Source: Hypanus sabinus
Lineage: Eukaryota
Assembly (NCBI RefSeq): GCF_030144855.1
Contig: NC_082706.1
Coordinates: forward strand, 127,162,001-127,226,000
Length of the DNA: 64,000 nucleotides
Direction: 5' to 3'
The translations under genes and the position numbers were made by a program. The stretch's first letter is position 1, and the number at the start of each line of letters is the position of its first letter. This document shows positions 1 through 61,467 of the stretch, piece after piece. The notes beneath the pieces are model-generated. The model saw only the letters and a program-made list of their open reading frames with translations. It was not told the origin of the DNA and ran no database searches.

Positions 1-1
1 C

Positions 2-436
2 AGGCCAGTGCTGCTCTGGAAACATGCGAGGAGCAATAAATACTCCCCGCTGTTCGACAGGGTTCACCTACTACATGCGAACCCCCAGTATGCCTACGTG
101 GTCTTACCTCATGGGCAGGAGGACACGTTCTCCGTCTGCGACCTGGCGCCCACAGGAGCACCAGACCCCTACCCTGAACACTCCACAGTGACTATGAACC
201 CCGTACCCACTGATGTATATACCCACGAGACACCGCACACAGCAAGCTCTACTGAGACTCCTCATGACACTCCCATACCGGGCGCCATGCATACGCATGA
301 GGGGTTACTGATGCCTAATGGACTGGGCCCTCAAGTCAGGCCATAGCCAGCACAACCACCGTCACCGGTGCAATCACCACCGGTGCTACGTAGATCGCAG
401 CGACAGACTTGGCCGCCTGATAGACTTGACCTATAA
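2..436 (+). pseudogene. C-terminal part of Ty3/Gypsy LTR-retrotransposon pol (integrase C-terminus); 5' part lies outside the window
   Basis: The frame reads RPVLLWKHARSNKYSPLFDRVHLLHANPQYAYVVLPHGQEDTFSVCDLAP, then a Pro/Thr-rich linker with an in-frame TAG at 344-346, then PVLRRSQRQTWPPDRLDL* (TAA 434-436). The LRRSxR..PP.RL ending is typical of Gypsy pol, and a PPT and LTR follow directly. Confidence 0.85.
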
Positions 437-478
437 ATATACTTGTAAGAAACTTTGCCCCGTGGGGACTCTCTTTTA

Positions 479-505
479 AAACAAAGGGGGGGGGGGGGTG
501 GTGAA
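479..505 (+). other. Polypurine tract of the LTR retrotransposon
   Basis: AAACAAA-G13-TGGTGAA lies between the pol stop and the TG that starts the LTR at 506. Confidence 0.8.
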
Positions 506-1810
506 TGTGGTAAACTATGTATACCTGTCTGGACACGCCCCTCTGCTGACTGTGGTAAACCATGTATACCTGTCTGGACACACCCCTCTGCTGACTGTGG
601 TAAACTATGTATACCTGTCTGGACACGCCCCTCTGCTGACTGTGGTAAGCTATGTATACCTGTCTGGACACACCCCTCTGCTGACTGTGGTAAACTATGT
701 ATACCTGTCTGGACACGCCCGTCTGCTGACTGTAGTGAACTACATATACGTGTCTGGGCACACCCCTCTGTTGACTGTGGTGAACTACATATACCTGTCT
801 GGACACACCCCTCTGCTGACTGTGGTAAACCATGTATACCTGTGTGGACACACCCCTCTACTGACTGAGGTAAACCATGTATACCTGTCTGGACACACCC
901 CTCTGCTGACTGTGGTAAACCATGTATACCTGTGTGGACACACCCCTCTACTGACTGAGGTAAACCATGTATACCTGTCTGGACACACCCCTCTGCTGAC
1001 TGTGGTAAACCATGTATACCTGTGTGGACACACCCCTCTGCTGACTGTGCTGAACTACATATACCTGTCTGGACACACCCCTCTGCTGACTGTGGTGAAC
1101 CATGTATACCTGTGTGGACACACCCCTCTGCTGACTGTGGTGAACCATGTATACATGTGTGGACACACCCCTCTGCTGACTGTGGTGAACCATGTATACC
1201 TGTGTGGACACACCCCTCTGCTGACTGTGGTGAACCATGTATACCTGTGTGGACACACCCCTCTGCTGACTGTGGTGAACCATGTATACCTGTGTGGACA
1301 CACCCCTCTGCTGACTGTGGTGAACTACATATACCTGTCTGGACACACCCCTCTGCTGACTGTGGTGAACCATGTATACCTGTGTGGACACACCCCTCTG
1401 CTGACTGTGGTAAACTATGTATACCTGTCTGGACACGCCCCTCTGCTGACTGTGGTAAACCATGTATACCTGTCTGGACACACCCCTCTGCTGACTGTGG
1501 TAAACTATGTATACCTGTCTGGACACGCCCCTCTGCTGACTGTGGTAAACCATGTATACCTGTCTGGACACGCCCCTCTGCTGACTGTGGTAAACCATGT
1601 ATACCTGTCTGGACACGCCCCTCTGCTGACTGTGGTAAACCATGTATACCTGTCTGGACACGCCCCTCTGCTGACTGTGGTAAACCATGTATACCTGTCT
1701 GGACACACCCCTCTGCTGACTGTGGTAAACCATGTATACCTGTCTGGACACGCCCCTCTGCTGACTGTGGTAAACCATGTATACCTGTCTGGACACGCCC
1801 CTCTGCTGAC
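506..1810 (+). repeat. 45-bp minisatellite, 29 copies
   Basis: Consensus TGTGGTAAACCATGTATACCTGTCTGGACAC(A/G)CCCCTCTGCTGAC. 1305 bp = 29 x 45, with substitutions only and no indels. Confidence 0.98.
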
Positions 1811-1840
1811 TGCTCTTGTGGCTCCTCCCACAGACCCCTG

Positions 1841-1847
1841 TATAAAA
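1841..1847 (+). promoter_or_regulatory. LTR TATA box
   Basis: TATAAAA 30 bp after the array and upstream of the polyA signal, the normal U3-R layout. Confidence 0.65.
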
Positions 1848-1901
1848 GCGATTGGGGCACTGCTCCTCCCTCAGGATGTTGTGTGGTGGTCTCTTGCTGC
1901 T

Positions 1902-1907
1902 AATAAA
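1902..1907 (+). terminator. LTR polyadenylation signal
   Basis: AATAAA 47 bp before the terminal CA. Confidence 0.65.
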
Positions 1908-1954
1908 AGCCTATGATTCACTTCCCATCTCAGAGAGTTATTGATGGTGCATCA

Positions 1955-2200
1955 GACATAAAGGTGCACTGTTTCATACCTGCTGATTACAGAGCTTAGC
2001 CTCTGCAGTGTCTGCCTAACGTTGGCCTGAGGTGGAAAGTACACCACTGCTAGCGTAATGGTGGAAAACTTCCTCGACAGGTAAAAAGGATGACATTTGA
2101 CTGCAAGGTGTTTCAGGTTGTGTGAGCAGGACAGACTGAGTTTGTGTACCACAATGAGTTAATTATAAAGCATACTCTGTCTCCTGCGCTTTTGTGGAAA
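1955..2200 (-). mobile_element. Rex1/Babar LINE AP-endonuclease fragment, interrupted by the LTR element
   Basis: Minus frame LKHLAVKCHPFYLSRKFSTITLAVVYFPPQAN matches the Rex1 APE motif (..KCRPFYLPREF...AVYIPPQAN). Confidence 0.8.
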
Positions 2201-2520
2201 AGAGAGGGTAATACTAAACAAATAAATGGCTTCTGGACCCAGAGCTCAGATTGCTGAAACTGCTGCTGATAATTTTAAAGTTATTTTTTTTTCCTTTAAC
2301 GTTGTAAGTGGCAGGACTGTCTCACCTATGAACTTTGCATGAAATCAAGGCCTTACGAAAACTTTGATTATTTGCTTTCCAATTGTCCAGAAGGGCTTGG
2401 CTCCCTGATCAGGCAAAGATACAGCTTGCTCTCAGACACTCACCCCAGCACGTGTTGACAAGGGGATTGGTTGTACATTTACTTTGTGAGCCTGAGGAGT
2501 TTGAATTCAACAAAAACTGA

Positions 2521-2701
2521 GCACACTTTTGGCAGGATAAATGGAGGAGAATCCTAAGGGCCTCTACATGTATATTAAGCACAAAAATACTGAGGAACAA
2601 ACTTGGTCCTCTTGAAGATCAGAGTGGTTATTTATTCACGGAGCTGAAAAAGATGGGAGATCTAAAATGCATTTTTTGCATTAGTATGGACACAGTCTGA
2701 A
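2521..2701 (+). mobile_element. Short CR1 ORF2 fragment, near copy of 5209-5391
   Basis: GGAGAATCCTAAG...GTCCTCTTGAAGATCAGA...GATGGGAGATCTAAAATG is shared with the start of the CR1 at 5209. Confidence 0.75.
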
Positions 2702-3184
2702 GACAAAATGAAGCAAGAGTTCTGGACTAGCTGGAGGTGGAAGGGATATGGAGCTGAGTCCCACCTCTTTTCTCTTTCTACCATTGTAGAGTATAGTTGG
2801 AGAGCCCTGGTGTCCTTATTCCTTGTTTTCACTTAATGTAAGTCATTTTTCTGATATGTTTTCATCAGTTAGTTTATGCATGCTGGAGGGCTGTCTGAGC
2901 AACTATCCAGAGTGAGAACTGTTCTAGGCAGCAAAATTGGCCCTCGGCTCTTGCACAATCATGTCCTGAAGTGCTCTGTGTTTTCAGATTCTGCCTGACT
3001 TACTGAGTTCCAGACGTTTTTTTGCTCTAGGTCACAGCATCTGAATCTCTAGTGTTTCTATCGACAGCCAAGCTGGTATAGCTAACTCAGCACAGATTTG
3101 AGATTGGTCCTCTTGTCCTCTTTTCTTTCATTTTTTTCCTTTCTTTTCTCAAGTTGGGATACAATGCAAGAGCAGTACTGAGTG

Positions 3185-3490
3185 TCAGCATGGAGTGGTG
3201 CAGTTAGTAAAACCATTGTCTTCTTTCTCAAGGAAGTGGACTCAATACTGTTCTCCAATGCTTACTCTGTAAAATTTACACAGTCTCTATGATCACCTGG
3301 ATTTCCTCCAGTTTCCACTCTTACCCTGAAGGTGTCTGGGTTTTTAGCTTAATTGGCTACAGTAAACTGCCTTTAGTGTGTTTGTCCATTGAATTGATAG
3401 GAATACGGGGAACTTAAATGGATCAGTGTGGGATTAGTGTGACTGAGTCAGTATTTGGGCCTTTTTCTACACTCTATGATTCTATGTCTC
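3185..3490 (+). mobile_element. Decayed HE1-like tRNA-derived V-SINE
   Basis: Has a degenerate tRNA-like head, a V-domain-like core (GGATTTCCTCCAGTTTCC...TTAATTGGCTACAGTAAACTGCC) and a CR1-like tail (GGGCCTTTTTCTACACTCTATGATTCTATG). Confidence 0.55.
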
Positions 3491-5134
3491 TCAGATGCTG
3501 TCTGGTTACTTTGGCTACACCAACTGCTGACACCTTGCGGGAGAACACCAAGGGGCAGCCAAACTATGACAGAGACAAGGCATGGAAGAGAGGCGGTTTG
3601 CTTTGGGTCACTTTTGGGTGAATAAGTGACAAGATGCTTCTGGACCTTGCCCAGATCTACAGCTTTCGGAAGCTGGGATCCATAGTCAGCTGTGACAACT
3701 GAGCCAACCTATTTACTGAGGACTGCAGATTGGGATTTGTACTGAGCAGACGCAGAAGGGCTAGGGTAAGTTGAGGAGGGAGAAGGCTGCATAGAGGTTT
3801 TGAGAAGATGAGGAGTAGGTAACTGGACCAAGCACAGATATCCCTGGGCAACAATAATATATAGAGCAAGAAGATTAGCTTCATCTTGTCTCACTTGAAC
3901 CAGATACTGAATTTTTATTTTCAAAAGCTGCTCTTGTATGTAGTATTATTGGTTAAAGCATTTGAATATATCAACACACCTACAAAAAAGTGCACTCAGA
4001 GCATGAGTAGGCCACTCAGCCCTTTAAAACTTTCCCTACTGTTCCTTAAGGTCATGGCTGATATGATTGTAACCACATCTCAGCATTTCTGCATTCCCAG
4101 CTAGCCGCAATAATCCTTGAAAGATTCAAAGTACCCCATACTACAGGCAGCAGACACCAGAATTGATTTTTTCCATCCAATACCACCTTGACATTTTCAC
4201 AACCTTTTGTGGATTAGTTTCTGATCTTCCTCCAAGCAGAGAGGAAACCGTCCACCCGTTATGTACAGCTTGGCCCTCGTGCATATAACCCTTATCGATG
4301 AGCTGGAAAGGGCAATCTTTTTCAGGGCTATAATCTCCTGGTGGTTTATAAAATCTGCTAATGCACATTGCTGGAGCAGATAAATTTCCTTTTTAAATTA
4401 CTGACATGTGCCTGCTCTAATTTATTTATGCATGAAGTTAGACATTTTTTGAATACAATTGTTTTACATAATCTAACTGTTTGTTTAATTCACTTCATGT
4501 TTATTGGAGTTGGAAAAGTTTCAAACTCATCTGTATTTGAATGCTGAAAAACAATTTACCATGGCAGCACTCTAAGACATGGCATGAGCAAGCTTTTAAC
4601 ATGATAAATTATGGCAAAGTTCACAGTTTGCCATGCACTTACCTTCACTTTGCCTTCACAGAGCATCAATAGATCATTTCTTCTGTGCTTTAGCTCAGTG
4701 CTGCTGCGAGCCATTAAGTTCTGCTCCCACTTGTTCACCGCATTTTCCCTCTTTTTAAACAATACTCCTTTTACTTGTCATAACCTCAAGCTGTGTTTCA
4801 TGATTTTGTTTCTCTACATGATGGATTTAGTAAATTCATCTTTAAGCATTGGCATTTTAAAACAATATGAATTCATCCAGGCCACAGGCAACAGAATTAT
4901 TCTTCAATGCTGGATGCATCTATTCATGGAATGATGTGGCATGAAGCTCCAGCCAATTAAAACAATGTACTTAATTCAAACCCGGTAAACCAGAAGGTCT
5001 TTCTTCATGAAACCACGGGAAGGACCTTTTTGAGATTCTCGCACCAAGAGAGGAAAGGTAGTCAGGATTATCTTAAAAAAGTTAAATATAACCTGCGGTA
5101 AAACATGAGCACTAACCAGGTTAGACAGCATCTG

Positions 5135-5208
5135 ACAAGATGCTGGAGGAACTCAGCAGGTCGGGCAACATCAATAGAGAGAAATGGACAGTAGAAGTTT
5201 TAGGTCAA
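5135..5208 (-). mobile_element. Penelope-derived short repeat, split by the CR1 insertion (resumes ~6901-6915)
   Basis: ATGCTGGGAGAACTCAGCAGGTCGGGCAACATC... matches the family seen at 15712, 58721 and 60449. CATCTGGACTGA after the CR1 tail continues the consensus. Confidence 0.6.
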
Positions 5209-6900
5209 TGCACTTTTGGCGCGATAAATGAAGGAGAATCCTAAGAGCTTCTGCATGTATATTAAGCTCAAAGATACTAAGGGACAAATTTTGTCCTCTT
5301 GAAGATCAGAATGGTTATTTATACACGGAGCCAAAAAAGATGGGAGATCTAAAATGATTTTTTTGCATCACTATGGACACAGTCTATAGAAGTGAGCCAA
5401 GACAGCAGTGAGGTCATGAACCATATAAAGATTACGGAGCAGGAGGTGTTTGCTGTCTTGATGCAAATTAGGGTGGATAAATCCCTCTGCCCTGTCAAAG
5501 CCTCTGATCTTGTGGAAGGCAAGTGGAGAAATTGCAGGGCCTTAGCAGAGATATTTAAAATGTCCTTAGCAATGGGTGAGGTGCTGGAGGACTGGTGAAC
5601 AGCTGATGTTCTGTTGTTTAAGAAAGTATCGGCCAGTGGGCCTGATGTCAGTAGTGGGTAAGATATTGGAAGGTATTGTAATCAGATGGATAGAAAAATA
5701 TTTGGATAGATGGGAACTGATTAGGAACAGCTTTGTATGTGGTAGGTCATATCTAACCAAACTTGTGTAGTTTTCAGGGAAGTTACCAGGAATGTTGATG
5801 AAGGCATGACAGTGGATTTTGTCTACGTGGACTTTCGCAAGTCCTTTGACAAGGTCCCACATGGGAGGCTGGTTGAAAGTTTGGTCATTTGGCATTCAGA
5901 ATCGGGTAGTAAATTGGATTAGACATTGGCTTCACTGAAGAAGCGAGAGAGTGCTAGGAGTTAGTTGCCTCTCTGACTAGAGGCCAGTGACTAGTGGAGT
6001 GCTGAAGGGGTTGGTGTTGGGTCCATCGTTGTTTGTCATCTATAGCAATGATTTGTAAACTGGATCAGCAAATTAGTGGATGACACCGAGACTGGAGGAG
6101 TAGTGGACTGTAAGGATGCAGACCAGTTGGAACAATGGAGTGAAAAATGGCAGCTGGAATTTAATGCAGAGAAGTGTGAGGGGTTGGCACTTCGGGATGA
6201 CAAACCAGGGTAGGTCTTGTTCAGTAGGGCACTGAGGAGTGCAGTAGAACAGAGGGATCTGGGATATTTGATCCATAATTCTTTCAAAGTGGCTTCACAG
6301 ATAAGGTTGTAAACAAAGCATTCACCTATGAATTCACCTTCATAGATAAGAATATTGAGTACAGGAGTTGGGATGTTGTATTGAAGTTGCACCAGACATT
6401 AATGAGGCTTAATCTAGAGTATTGTATGTCACTAAGATTGAAAGAGTCCAGAGAAATTTTACAAAGATGCTGGGAGTTATAGCGTCAGGTTGTATAGGTC
6501 AGTGCTTTATTCCATAGAGTGTAGGAGAATAAGAAAATATTTAATAGAGGTATAAAAAGTAATGAAGGGTAGAGATAGGGTAAATGCAAGCAGGCTTTTT
6601 CCACTGAGGTTGAGTGAAGAGTGTAACTGCAGGTCATGGGTTAAAGGAGAATAATGAAATTTTTAAGGGAGCATGAAGGAAACTTTCTTCATTCACAGGG
6701 TTATGAGAGTGGGAAAGCTGCCAACAAAAGTGGTTGATGTGAGTTTGACTTCAACATTTAAGAGAAATTTGGATAGGTACATGGACAGGAAAGCTATGGA
6801 GGGTTCTGGTCCGCATGCATGTTGATGGGATAAGGTATATGAATAGTTCTGCACAGAAGGCTGAAGGACCTGTTTCTGTGCTGCAATGCTCTGACTCTGA
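5209..6900 (+). mobile_element. 5'-truncated, decayed CR1 (HER1-like) LINE: RT and 3' UTR
   Basis: RT motifs YRPVGLMSVVGK, VYVDFRKSFDKVPH, SGVLKGLVLGP and KLVDDT are spread across frameshifts. The tail is GAAGGACCTGTTTCTGTGCTG..CTCTGACTCTGA. Confidence 0.9.
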
Positions 6901-7199
6901 CATCATCTGGACTGAATGATTCAAGTAATAATTTCACTTCTACCTCAAAAGCTTATCTTAAACACTCTCCTCAAGATTTAGCTAAAGGAACGCAGGCTGT
7001 GTACTGCGGCTTCCACTGACATACACAATGTTTGAGGTACCTGCACAATTTTGGCAGATTCCACAAAGCAAAACCAAATCATCTAATTTTAAACTGACAG
7101 TAAGCAGATAGAGTAGACAGCTCACTCTATCTTAACCATTGCTCTCCTCCTACTCAGCTCTTATTTCTACCAGCAGAGATGGGTAGAATTCTTCCCAAT

Positions 7200-29100: not shown

Positions 29101-29424
29101 TAGAATTTCTCTCAGTTCTTTTGAAAGGTTATCGTTCCAAAATATTAATTCTGCTTTTGCGTAGATTCTACTTGATTTACTGTGTATTTCAAACATGATG
29201 TTTTCATTTTACGTATTTAATCATGTTGAATAAGGCAAAATTTACTGGTCAGAACACCAGAGCTAACTCACTTACTCTTAAAAAAATCATCTTTTAAGTA
29301 TTCATCTGAAAAAGCAATATGTTTCTAACAATGTTCTTTCTATTGAAGAAGCCCCAATGAAATGATTATCAAAGCCAAATCAAGTGTATTATCATATGCA
29401 CAAGTAGTTACTTGAAGCAGCATC

Positions 29425-30883
29425 CCAGATGGTACTACTATCGTCCAGTTGCACTTATATTCATTGTGATGAAGAGCCTTGAGAGGTTGGTGATGAAACA
29501 TATAAACTCCTGCTTGAGGGGTGACTTGGATCTGCTCCAATTTGCCTACTATCACAATCGGTCAACACCAGGTACCATTTTGTTTGCTCTTCTCTCAACT
29601 CTGGAAAATCTGGACAGTGAAGTTACATACATCAGGATGCTCTTAATTGACTACAGCTCTGTATTCAATATTATCATCCCCTCAAAACTAATCAATAACC
29701 TCCTTTACCTAGCCCTGAACATGCTCTTGTGGAACTGGATCCTCGATTTCCTCACTTGCAGACCCCAGTCAATTTGGATTGGCAACAACCTCACCACCAC
29801 AATTACCATCAGCACAGATGCACCACAAGGCTGTGTACTTAGCCCTCTGCTCTGCTTACTTTATACTTCTGAGTGTGAGGCTAAGTACAGCTCCAATGAT
29901 ATATTTAAGTTTGCTATTGACACCAGGGTTGTCGGCTAAATCAAGGGTGGTGACAACTCAACATATAGAAGTGAGACTGAAAATCTGGTGGAATGGTGCC
30001 AGCAGCAGCTTCTCACTGACTGTTAGCAAAATCAATGAACTGATTATTGACTACAGGAGGCAAAAATCGGAGGTCCATGAGCCGGTCCTCATCAGGAGAT
30101 CTGAGGTGAGAGGGTCACCAACTTTAAATTCCTTGGGCTTATTATTTCAGGGGGTAAGTCCTTGGCCCAACACATACTTGCCATTACAAGTAAAGTTGTA
30201 GAGGCAAGGGTTGCCTCTTTCTTAGAAGTTTGCAAAGATTTGCATGTCATCTAAAATTTTACAAACTTTTATAGATGTGCAGTGGAAGGAACACTGGCTG
30301 GTTGCATCACTGCCTGGTATGGAAACACCAATGCCCTTGAACAGAAAACCCTACAAAAAGTAGTGGATGCAGTTTAGCCCATCACAGTTAAATCCCATCC
30401 CACCATTGAGCACAGCTACAAGGAGTGCTAATGTAGGAAAACAACATCCATTATGTAGGAAAAACCATCCAGGCCATGCTGTCTTCTTGCTGCTGCCACC
30501 AGGAAGGAGATTCAGGAGCCTTAAGTCCAACACCACCAGGTTCAGAAAAAGCTATTACCCCTCTGTCATCATCCTCTTGAACCAGAGGAGGTAACTTAAT
30601 TCACCTCAATGCTAATCTGATTGCGCAACCTATCGACTCTCTTTCAAGGACTCTGCAACTCATGTTCTCAATATTTATTACGTATTTACTATTATTATCA
30701 TGTTTTTTTCTGCTTTATATTTGGTATCTTTTGCACATTAGTTGCCTGTCTGTCTTTGTTGCGTGCAGTTTTTCATTAATTGTATTGTGTTTCTTTGTGT
30801 TTACCGTGAATGCCTGCAAGAAAATGAATATCAGGGTTATATATGGTGATGTATATGTACTTCGATAATAAATTTACTTTGAA
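29425..30883 (+). mobile_element. 5'-truncated Rex1/Babar LINE (RT and 3' UTR)
   Basis: [58 protein letters not shown] and KFAIDT; tail ends AATAAATTTACTTTGAA. Confidence 0.92.
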
Positions 30884-34604: not shown

Positions 34605-36880
34605 ATATCTTCCATAGCCATCCAGGGGACTGATTTCCAAATGTTCATCAAATACTGAGTGAAGATATCTCAGTCCTAAACAGCCTACTCCTTTTTCACA
34701 AACTCTGCTCTCTGATATCAGCCAAGTGACCAGGTGCTGTGTCTCACCGTGGCCAACGTGAGAAGAACCCTGTGCAGGGTCAACCCACGGAAGGCTGCTG
34801 GACTAGACAACATCCCTGGTAGAGTGCTCAGAGGATGTGCAGACCAGCTAGCAGATGTTCTCACTGACACCTTCAACATCTCCCTTAGCAGTGCCAACGT
34901 TCCAACGTGCTTCAAGGCCGCCACCATCGTCCCCATGCTGAAGAAGTCTTCAGTGCCCTGCCTAAATGACTACCATCCTGTTGCACTTACATCCATCATT
35001 ATGAAGTGTTTAGAGAGGCTTGTCATGAGGCATATGCTGCCCCCCTCACTGGACCCCCTGCAGTTTGCGTACCATCCCAACCGCTCAACAGATGACGCCA
35101 TTGCCACCACCCTCCACCTGGCCCTAACCCACCTGGACAAAAAAGACACATACGTTCGGATGATATTCATGGACTTCAGTTCAGCATTCAACACAATCAT
35201 CCCTCAGAAACTGACTGGAAAGCTGAGCTGACTGGGCCTGAACACCTCCCTCTGCAACTGGATCCTAGACTTCCTGACTGGGAGACCTCAGTCAGTCCGA
35301 ATCGGGAGCAGCATCTCCAACACCATCACACTGAGCACGGGGGCTCCCCAAGGCTGCGTGCTCAGTCCACTGCTGTTCACTCTGCTGACCCACGACTGTG
35401 CTGCAATACACAGCTCAAACCATATCATCAAGTTCGCCGATGACACAACTGTGGTGGGTCTCATCAGCAAGAACGACGAGTCAGCTTACAGAGAGGAAGT
35501 GCAGCAGCTAACAGACTGGTGCAGAGCCAACAACCTGTCTCTGAATGTGAACAAAACGAAAGAGATGGTTGTTGACTTCAGGAGGGCACAGAGCGACTAC
35601 TCCCTGCTGAATATTGACGGCTCCTTGGTAGAGATCGTAAAGAGCACCAAATTTCTTGGTGTTCACCTGGTGGAGAATCTCACCTGGTCCCTCAACACCA
35701 GCTCCATAGCAAAGAAAGCCTAGCAGCCTCTCTACTTTCTGCGAAGGCTAAGGAAAGTCCATTTTCCACCCCCCATCCTCATCACATTCTACAGGGGTTG
35801 TATTGAGAGCATCCTGAGCAGCTATATCACTGCCTGGTTCAGAAATTGCACCGTCTCGGATCGCAAGACCCTGCAGCGGATAGTGAGGTCAGCTGAGAAG
35901 ATCATCGGGGTCTCTCTTACCACCATCACAGACATTTACACTACACGCTGCATCTGCAAAGGAAACAGCATTATGAAGGACCCCATGCACCCCTCATACA
36001 AACTCTTCTCCTTCCTGCTGTCTGGGAAAAGGCTCTGAAGCATTCGGGTTCTCACAGCTAGAGTATATAACAGTTTCTTCTGCCAAGCTATCAGACTCCT
36101 CAATACCCGAAGCCTGGACTGACACATTGCCCTACTGTCCTGTTTATTATTTATTGTAATGCTGGTACTGTTTTTGTGCACTTTATGTTGTCCTGTGTAA
36201 GTTTGTAGGCTAGTGTAGCTTTCTCTGTGTTTTTTTTTTTACGTAGTTCAGTCTAGTTTTTGTACTGTATCATGTAACACCATGGTCCTGAAAAACATTG
36301 TCTCATTTTTACTATGTACTGTACCAGCAGTTATGGTTGAAATGACAATAAAAAGTGATTTGACTTGACTTGAAGTGTCTAACTTTCTTCCACTGGCCAG
36401 TTCACACCCTTTCATAGTGTCGTAAGTTTTGTGAACAGCCCCTCTCATTCTTCTAATCTCTAGATGTTAAAGTTCCATTCTACTTATTCTGTCTTTATAT
36501 GATAATCCCTCCACCAATGCAACTTACCCAATGAATCATTGCCATACTCCCTATGTGGCAAGCACCTAACCTTTAGATAAGGAGACCAAAAGTATATACA
36601 TACTGTACTCAGCTGAGGTCTCAAGTTTCAGTCAAATCCCAGTAAGACTCCCTCTCTCTTGTAATGAAATACTTTCATAATAAAAGTGAACATATCATTT
36701 GATCTTGATTGCTGTGTGAAAGCCAACATGCAGGTACACCAACACTACCTAATCTATCAAGATTTAACATATACTCTGCTTCTGTCTTTGGTACACTAAG
36801 CAGATGACCTTATATTTTTCTGCATTGTATTCCATTTGCTATGTTCTTGTCTACTGACTCCATTTGTCCATAATATCCCT
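34605..36880 (-). mobile_element. Old CR1 fragment hosting the Rex1 insertion (parts ~34605-34721 and ~36374-36880)
   Basis: Reverse-complement CR1 ORF2 3' remnants on both flanks (CCCCTCTCATTCTTCTAA, TAAGGAGACCAAAAG, GTATTCCATTTGC). Confidence 0.55.
34722..36373 (+). mobile_element. Relatively young 5'-truncated Rex1/Babar LINE
   Basis: One frame 34734-36122 with only three premature stops (35229, 35721, 36036). Motifs [45 protein letters not shown] and KFADDT. Tail AATAAAAAGTGATTTGACTTGACTTGA. Confidence 0.95.
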
Positions 36881-61010: not shown

Positions 61011-61070
61011 GGCCAGGAAGCGGTGGCAGCCAAAGTCTGGGCTGGAGCTGGAGCTGGAGGTCACGTAATT

Positions 61071-61207
61071 CATGGTCTGGAGGCATCCAGGGTCATTGGA
61101 ACTAGAGTTGGAGGTGGCGGGATCCATGGTCTGGAAGCATCCAGGGTAACTGGAATGGGAGTTGGTGATGGTGGATGGTGGAATCCACGGTCTGGAGGCA
61201 TCCAGGG
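61071..61207. repeat. Diverged tandem repeat, 3 copies of a 22-bp core (periods 54 and 61 bp)
   Basis: CA(T/C)GGTCTGGA(G/A)GCATCCAGGG at 61071, 61125 and 61186. Confidence 0.85.
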
Positions 61208-61467
61208 CATTCTGAGCCTTAGTTGGAGATGGTGACAAATCAGCTGCATGCTGCTGTGGAGCAACTGTGGAGAGAAAAGTAAAGTTAACATTTCAAGTTC
61301 TCCCTCTGAAAGGTATACTGTTTCTACTTCCAGCTGACCAGCTGAGTGGCCTTCCATCATCTTCAATTGTTTTTCAATTTCATTTTCTTTTGCATAAAGC
61401 CAGCATGAATTTCAGGCCATATCACAGTACCTTGTAGGTAATGAAATATCTCTGAACAGTTGGGCAT

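Follow-up and report, generated by a model that had tools for sequence, protein, structure and literature searches.

We found that a 29-unit minisatellite in a Gypsy long terminal repeat (LTR) of the stingray Hypanus sabinus belongs to a local cluster of such arrays. The arrays appear to have arisen after their host elements had inserted; several contain units foreign to those hosts, and they share units with their neighbors. They probably spread from LTR to LTR by non-reciprocal repair and grew by unequal exchange, a reading to which we assign a probability of roughly three in four; it rests on one assembly, and all array lengths are assembly values. The array lies in a 64,000-nucleotide stretch of contig NC_082706.1 (assembly GCF_030144855.1, forward-strand positions 127,162,001 to 127,226,000), called the window here; its scaffold is called C1. 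Table 1 lists the features and loci.

Table 1. Features around the window array, and LTR-end array loci on chromosome-scale scaffolds
Feature	Position	Strand	Units or content	Basis
3' end of second near-identical 1.35-kb RNase H-end/integrase copy, Gypsy element	window 1-482	+		sequence; Pfam in copy 1
Polypurine tract abutting 3' LTR (G run 486-498)	window 483-505	+		sequence; same arrangement before the one-unit 3' LTRs of sibling elements
Minisatellite, copies of the LTR first segment	window 506-1810	+	29 x 45 bp	TRF; units cut in LTR register
Remaining 3' LTR (TATA-like box 1841-1847, AATAAA 1902-1907, CA end 1954)	window 1811-1954	+		sequence
Right 5-bp target-site duplication, GACAT	window 1955-1959	+		left copy at C1:127,155,680-127,155,684
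Part of insertion outside window	C1:127,155,685-127,162,000	+	42-unit array, LTR stub, integrase copy 1, polypurine tract, 48-unit array, stub, integrase copy 2	
Array locus	C1:117.98 Mb		13 units	
Array locus	C1:120.60 Mb		21 units	
Array locus	C1:123.10 Mb		13 units	
Array locus	C1:123.92 Mb		about 1,420 units over 64 kb, 200-N gap inside	
Array locus	C1:124.58 Mb		about 2,050 units over 92 kb	
Array locus	C1:124.89 Mb		18 units	
Array locus (window locus)	C1:127.16 Mb		42+48+29 units	
Array locus	C1:127.64 Mb		3 units	
Array locus	C1:130.36 Mb		58 units	
Array locus	C1:139.22 Mb		62 units	
C25 cluster	99.9-104.2 Mb		three loci	
C28 cluster	71.9-74.9 Mb		three loci	
C38 cluster	61.6 and 62.3 Mb		two loci	
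Lone loci	C19, C26, C29, C31		one locus each	

We examined the structure of the window array and the LTR that contains it. TRF reported a repeat at 502-1812 with a period of 45, 29.1 copies, 94% matches, 0% indels and a score of 2202. Cut in register with the LTR, it yields 29 units of exactly 45 bp, as an earlier note on this DNA had counted. The units comprise 13 distinct sequences. That note had described a Gypsy 3' LTR whose first 45 bp are amplified, and the sequence agrees. The array starts at the TG terminus of the LTR (position 506), directly after a G-rich polypurine tract, the arrangement of Ty3/Gypsy elements, and stops 30 bp before the TATAAAA motif at 1841. The LTR ends in CA, GACAT flanks the insertion on both sides, and integrase sequence lies upstream. 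Judged by motif and position, the TATA-like box and AATAAA would provide promoter and poly(A) functions. Long reading frames (478-522 amino acids) cross the array because the 45-bp unit contains no stops. Folding the unit or the unit junction gave nothing unusual (z = 0.05 to 0.75 in four of four folds), and we found no evidence for any effect of the repeated integrase-attachment end. Elsewhere in the window, reverse transcriptase fragments at 29361-29939 and 34716-35723 (Pfam RVT_1 in 3 of 10 frames scanned) are unrelated to the array-bearing LTR family by blastn, and a 54-bp unit is present in three degenerate copies at 61043-61211.

One unit joined to 1811-1954 makes a compact 189-bp LTR, and this sequence does recur in the 4.04-Gb genome, as the note had proposed. 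A first-look search returned 2,823 candidates, and the best 40 of these, which were scored, showed 88-100% identity. All 29 other copies that were fetched had TG...CA ends and one unit, a count to be read with the query in mind, which favors one-unit copies. A 29-mer from the LTR body had 17,874 exact genome matches, and nearly all of the family's other ends (18,000 or more) carry the repeated segment as a single copy. At the 5' LTR end located at C1:120,597,687-120,597,708 (minus strand), and at others, the bases that follow the LTR are a 15-nt perfect complement of the LTR poly(A)-signal region rather than a tRNA site.

We surveyed the genome for similar arrays using a 28-mer that spans the junction between two units. 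It had 2,476 exact matches, compared with 0 for a control; 2,468 were placed in fetched DNA, 2,201 of them on C1. Array-end searches were run, and all 55 matches of one of them were examined, together with 100 of the 271 matches in a search for a 44-bp period; this census would miss arrays whose junctions have diverged further or whose units have another length. We found 22 loci with at least two units on chromosome-scale scaffolds, a count that omits both the partial duplication on C43 and C1483, where the C26 locus occurs a second time. Eighteen of the 22 fall in four clusters (C1, C25, C28 and C38), each locus having a neighbor within 10 Mb, whereas the LTR family is present on all large scaffolds. 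When loci were placed uniformly along 3,800 Mb, 100,000 runs averaged 2.3 clustered loci and never exceeded 12. The ten C1 loci span 21 Mb (118-139 Mb) and range from 3 to about 2,050 units.

Arrays were also present on unplaced contigs C2607 (18 kb) and C2521 (at least 33 kb). The C2521 array, which runs from 120,718 to beyond 154,000, consists of 43-44-bp LTR-end units of a type seen nowhere else and ends in a normal LTR tail. The array-end matches with one mismatch were rejected as arrays: all 18 that were fetched last, and two on C87, were one-unit LTRs with a flank that resembles the unit end by chance. The C87 pair (46.58 and 46.62 Mb) has identical flanks 34 kb apart and represents a local duplication. 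Contigs from related organisms contained other tandem joints of this LTR: in run X16 (depth 97) 1854 is joined back to 1723, and in X14 and X15 the joint leads from 1837-1839 to 1803-1808. Units of other lengths may therefore exist.

The window array is the last of three arrays in one insertion that begins upstream of the window. Its order is GACAT, 42-unit array, stub, integrase copy 1, polypurine tract, 48-unit array, stub, integrase copy 2, polypurine tract, 29-unit array, LTR end, GACAT. The stubs are 34-39 bp of LTR cut at the TATA box. The two 1.35-kb RNase H-end/integrase copies differ at 5 of 1,351 bases, and a frame without stops in copy 1 matched Pfam rve (E=1.1e-18). This element keeps integrase only; the sibling element at C1:130.36 has the order protease, reverse transcriptase, RNase H and integrase (matches in 4 of 5 frames, that of reverse transcriptase below the Pfam cut-off). 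Among 40 scored matches, the deletion junction between LTR stub and RNase H occurred twice, both times in the window-locus insertion, and the LTR and pol have three bases (GGC) in common there. The 5' and 3' arrays share 0 derived unit types, and their stubs differ at 3 of 33 bases. The middle array has a stub identical to that of the 5' array, first six units that match the first six of the 3' array, and derived unit types shared with both (four with the 5' array, one with the 3' array). Unequal crossing-over of the 3' array with the 5' array would be expected to produce this mixture. We envisage an internal deletion that fused the 5' LTR, cut at the TATA box, with the end of RNase H; arrays would have been gained by both LTRs, and a recent unequal crossover likely generated the LTR-IN-LTR-IN-LTR tandem. 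The 64-kb array, at a distance of 3.2 Mb, contains seven of the 12 derived unit types of the 5' array, although such sharing with the giant arrays is partly expected because single-site variants can recur by mutation among their 3,400 units.

We next compared the units themselves between loci. Position 11 of the unit is T in 60 of the 62 one-unit LTRs examined and C in the other two, and the C11 form occurs at only 154 LTR ends genome-wide. Eight of the ten C1 loci contain C11, at 31-92% of their units; the window array has it in 19 of 29. A 33-mer that combines C11, T19 and C27 occurs 31 times in the genome, confined to four C1 arrays within 6.6 Mb (2, 25, 2 and 2 occurrences). LTR tails of the GGCCTGAG type provided a test of foreign origin. 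One-unit LTRs with this tail have a 44-bp first segment in 22 of 23 cases and a 45-bp TCTG-type segment in 0 of 23. Arrays in four hosts with this tail contained TCTG-type 45-bp units (8 of 13, 16 of 18, 1 of 3 and 57 of 58), and in three of the four the array was closed by a 44-bp unit of the host. These monomers are discordant with their host site and common to several loci, as in the Rsp-like/1.688 case described below.

Other clusters showed local sharing as well, and the C25, C28 and C38 clusters each have their own shared variant. A T variant marks C25, where the loci at 99.89 and 104.24 also share a composite of LTR stub and two units. All four junctions in the three C28 loci carry a G8 variant; a giant donor array of this variant was ruled out, as these four junctions are all that exist. 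C38 and C2607 contain poly-C-extended 44-bp units. We did not find a long ordered run of units common to two loci and traceable to a single donor. The longest runs in common were 4-6 units, and the one with p=0.005 (uncorrected, among dozens of pairs) is made of common unit types. Some C1 loci share less. The 127.64-Mb locus lacks C11, and the one at 117.98 Mb has C11 with neither of its two derived types found at other loci. The locus at 139.22 Mb lacks C11 and has variants of its own, two of which recur only at C1:130.36; its flank matches the unit end over 7 bp, and it may be a separate birth.

We considered whether a region-wide tendency toward repeat expansion had led each LTR to duplicate its own first segment, with shared variants produced by parallel mutation. 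Unrelated long minisatellites are plentiful in this genome, where they fill 7 of 19 sampled unplaced contigs end to end, each with another family (26-57 bp) and with no single dominant satellite across the 19. The C25, C38 and C2521 arrays adjoin other minisatellites, and the lone arrays on C19, C26, C29 and C31, perhaps with C1:139.2, look like separate births. Independent births would, however, yield C11 at eight of ten loci with a probability of about 1e-15 if the background is 0.9% and 4e-7 if it is 10%, and they fit poorly with a three-change unit confined to four arrays, 45-bp units in hosts from a 44-bp-segment subfamily, and a composite common to two C25 loci. The foreign units largely refute this explanation for C1 and C25, and it stands for first births; for the arrays in general we regard it as unlikely. 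The same evidence bears on the earlier note, which offered as one option, correctly, that the minisatellite came from an LTR end, and which suggested that microhomology at the polypurine-tract junction could have seeded it. Birth at the window locus from this microhomology is rejected: the main unit type, rare in the genome, is common to seven other C1 loci, and almost all other arrays are in solo or 5' LTRs, which have no polypurine tract.

Sampling for a possible centromeric setting, as with the maize repeat CRM1TR described below, gave no clear regional signal. Minisatellites of at least 200 bp with a period over 10 were present in 5 of 20 samples from C1:100-146 Mb and 1 of 20 elsewhere (Fisher p=0.18), and in 0 of 11 samples from C1:117-137 Mb. 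In the red stingray, simple tandem repeats are abundant in a central region described as a putative centromere (bioRxiv 10.1101/2025.06.08.657570). A 31-bp minisatellite extends throughout the 10-kb sample at C1:100,000,001-100,010,000. Contig C1250 is filled from 2001 to 7000 by a 57-bp minisatellite whose unit resembles, by eye and on the other strand, a dispersed repeat; other mobile elements may thus also feed long arrays.

We also weighed whether assembly or read correction could have created the arrays as such, or else their lengths and mixtures of units. The 64-kb array contains a 200-N gap, and no contig has 31 bases on both sides of a unit junction. Target-site duplications nevertheless match across every array, including across 92 kb, and the units vary in sequence (235 and 371 types), with variants particular to a locus. 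Three independent public runs crossed the junction with 13-30 bases a side. A contig from X1 crosses it with 24+30 bases at a depth of 59-80, compared with 5-9 in single-copy contigs; one from X2 does so with 13+30 bases, no difference and the C11 form; and X19 has 44-base contigs at the junction with depths of 326-535. Among the matches listed for run X14, none crossed it. No public run held half or more of the window-locus flank words, and runs X2 to X13, with a small share of them, were not counted as containing the window locus. These contigs support the junction as real DNA in several organisms, a support that excludes array lengths and the window locus itself. We consider an artefact very unlikely.

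The insertions that carry arrays are separate and probably older than the arrays. Each C1 locus has its own flanks and a different 5-bp target-site duplication (perfect in eight of ten, one mismatch in two), and the hosts lie in both orientations with LTR tails of three subfamily types. Six two-LTR elements carry an array, and five of these, at C1:120.60, C1:123.10, C1:130.36, C28:74.87 and C19:46.06, have it in the 5' LTR opposite a one-unit 3' LTR, with tail divergences of 4.6, 4.1, 6.5, 8.1 and 9.7%, respectively. The end of the host LTR at the window locus is also present in a related organism. A contig from run X19 spans 1917-2170, with 38 bases in the LTR end and 216 in the flank, and contigs from X14 and X15 cover the same joint with 27 and 30 LTR bases, under the bar for bridging; the X14 flank differs at 42 of 1,193 bases. 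Because of the target-site duplications, the diverged one-unit partners and the LTR end in a relative, we infer that the host insertions are old and that the arrays came later, so that the recipient sites predate the repeat, as in the Rsp-like/1.688 case.

These observations bear on the proposal, also made in the earlier note, that an array-bearing family retrotransposed and copied its U3 array into both LTRs, with tails mixed by template switching. At the window locus the 5' LTR and the 3' LTR each contain an array, and many other loci are solo LTRs, beyond the reach of a partner-LTR test. Among the six two-LTR elements, however, none has matching arrays in two near-identical LTRs, and the one-unit partners, the LTR end in a relative and the clustering of arrays with three tail types on C1 all argue against the proposal, which we judge highly improbable. 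The note had suggested inspecting the 5' LTR at the window locus, where arrays in both LTRs would mean expansion before transposition. Both arrays exist, but the test is misleading here because they share no derived unit types, which warns that arrays in both LTRs are no proof that an element moved with them. Solo and 5' LTRs predominate among the hosts, and the excess of 5' LTRs in one-sided elements (5 of 5, two-sided binomial p = 0.06) is suggestive of a bias; a speculative reason is the upstream homology of a 3' LTR to one-unit donors. Local segmental duplication of one array-bearing locus was suggested by the clustering and by the tandem at the window locus, itself a local duplication. 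The loci are unlike in their flanks, target-site duplications, orientations and tails, which refutes this idea and leaves it a negligible probability.

We propose that post-insertion spread between LTRs would begin when a resident LTR with one unit is broken within its first 45 bp and the break is repaired from a nearby array-bearing LTR. Repair synthesis would cross one or more unit junctions and then re-anneal to the host's own half-unit. The host would gain a foreign block, with its flanks and target-site duplication unchanged. The trace would be the same if an excised circle of units were re-inserted through one crossover; we include this route in the proposal, and the products of the two routes are indistinguishable. 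Unequal exchange would then expand and reshuffle the units, which may explain why long ordered tracts are missing. A nested insertion might have supplied the first junction; so might flanking sequence or a target-site duplication with a likeness to the end of the unit, of the kind present at C1:139.22.

A broader idea, which we advance tentatively and hold to be somewhat doubtful, is that the unit junction behaves as a contagious element without genes. Repair would add units more often than it removes them. Arrays would then be able to colonize any LTR of the family lying within contact range, about 10 Mb, and round after round of such transfer would build chromosome-specific satellite fields, all descended from very few junction-forming events. 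If this is true, a dispersed transposon family can be converted into such fields, which have already reached 64 and 92 kb. Debate over the way tandem repeats arrive at new sites usually rests on the resemblance between arrays. Here the target-site duplication, the subfamily tail and, often, an unconverted partner LTR allow transfer after insertion to be told apart from in situ birth and transposition, and the range of transfer can be measured (a few to 10 Mb, on one chromosome). The series of 2, 3, 13, 21 and 58 to about 2,050 units presents satellite formation at all stages in one vertebrate genome.

We compared the stingray arrays to published tandem repeats that derive from, or move between, repeated sequences. 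A published account of an LTR-end minisatellite spreading between neighboring LTRs was not found among literature listings and the openings of abstracts, subscription papers and supplements aside. Minisatellites are known to have grown inside vertebrate LTRs: mouse Ms6-hm and Hm-2 lie in MaLR LTRs (Kelly 1994, per review PMC9659126), where they are given as single-locus origins. Human LTRs undergo non-allelic gene conversion, for which the same chromosome supplies most donors (Trombetta et al. 2016, PMC4921805). This too is LTR-to-LTR transfer, concentrated in U3 for one LTR, but its tracts of 3-450 bp replace bases, with no gain of tandem units described.

Two systems resemble the stingray arrays more closely in structure. 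In the squamate SINE-derived satellites sSat1-3 (Vassetzky et al. 2023, PMC10702118), part of an element is amplified inside many copies; arrays reach about 1,000 units, the terminal unit is longer and extends to the element end, and units are similar between loci. These differ in deriving from a SINE rather than an LTR, in the 115-215-nt units of the variants considered and in a subtelomeric bias; the likeness between loci is attributed to concerted evolution, and the term gene conversion is absent from the main text. The maize repeats CRM1TR and CRM4TR (Sharma et al. 2013, PMC3648361) derive from Gypsy LTRs at neighboring loci, and gene conversion was proposed for their growth and possibly for seeding the second locus. 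They comprise two loci 1.4 Mb apart with monomers of about 700-800 bp, and little or no movement between loci is reported there, whereas the stingray has ten C1 loci with 45-bp units and rare units in common.

The closest published case, in our analysis, appears to be the spread of the Rsp-like satellite into 1.688 clusters on the X chromosome of Drosophila simulans and D. mauritiana (Sproul et al. 2020, PMC7403614). There, too, a tandem repeat occupies pre-existing homologous sites on one chromosome, with foreign monomers beside host sequence and shared junctions, and interlocus gene conversion or circle re-insertion was proposed. The Drosophila recipients are unrelated satellite arrays that were joined through microhomology across the whole X. 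The stingray recipients, in contrast, are single LTRs of the source family within a range of a few Mb, and a target-site duplication and often a partner LTR serve to date and control each event. Spread of the stingray arrays would work like the Rsp-like invasion of 1.688 and resemble CRM1TR and the squamate satellites, but with single-LTR recipients, a range of a few megabases and built-in controls.
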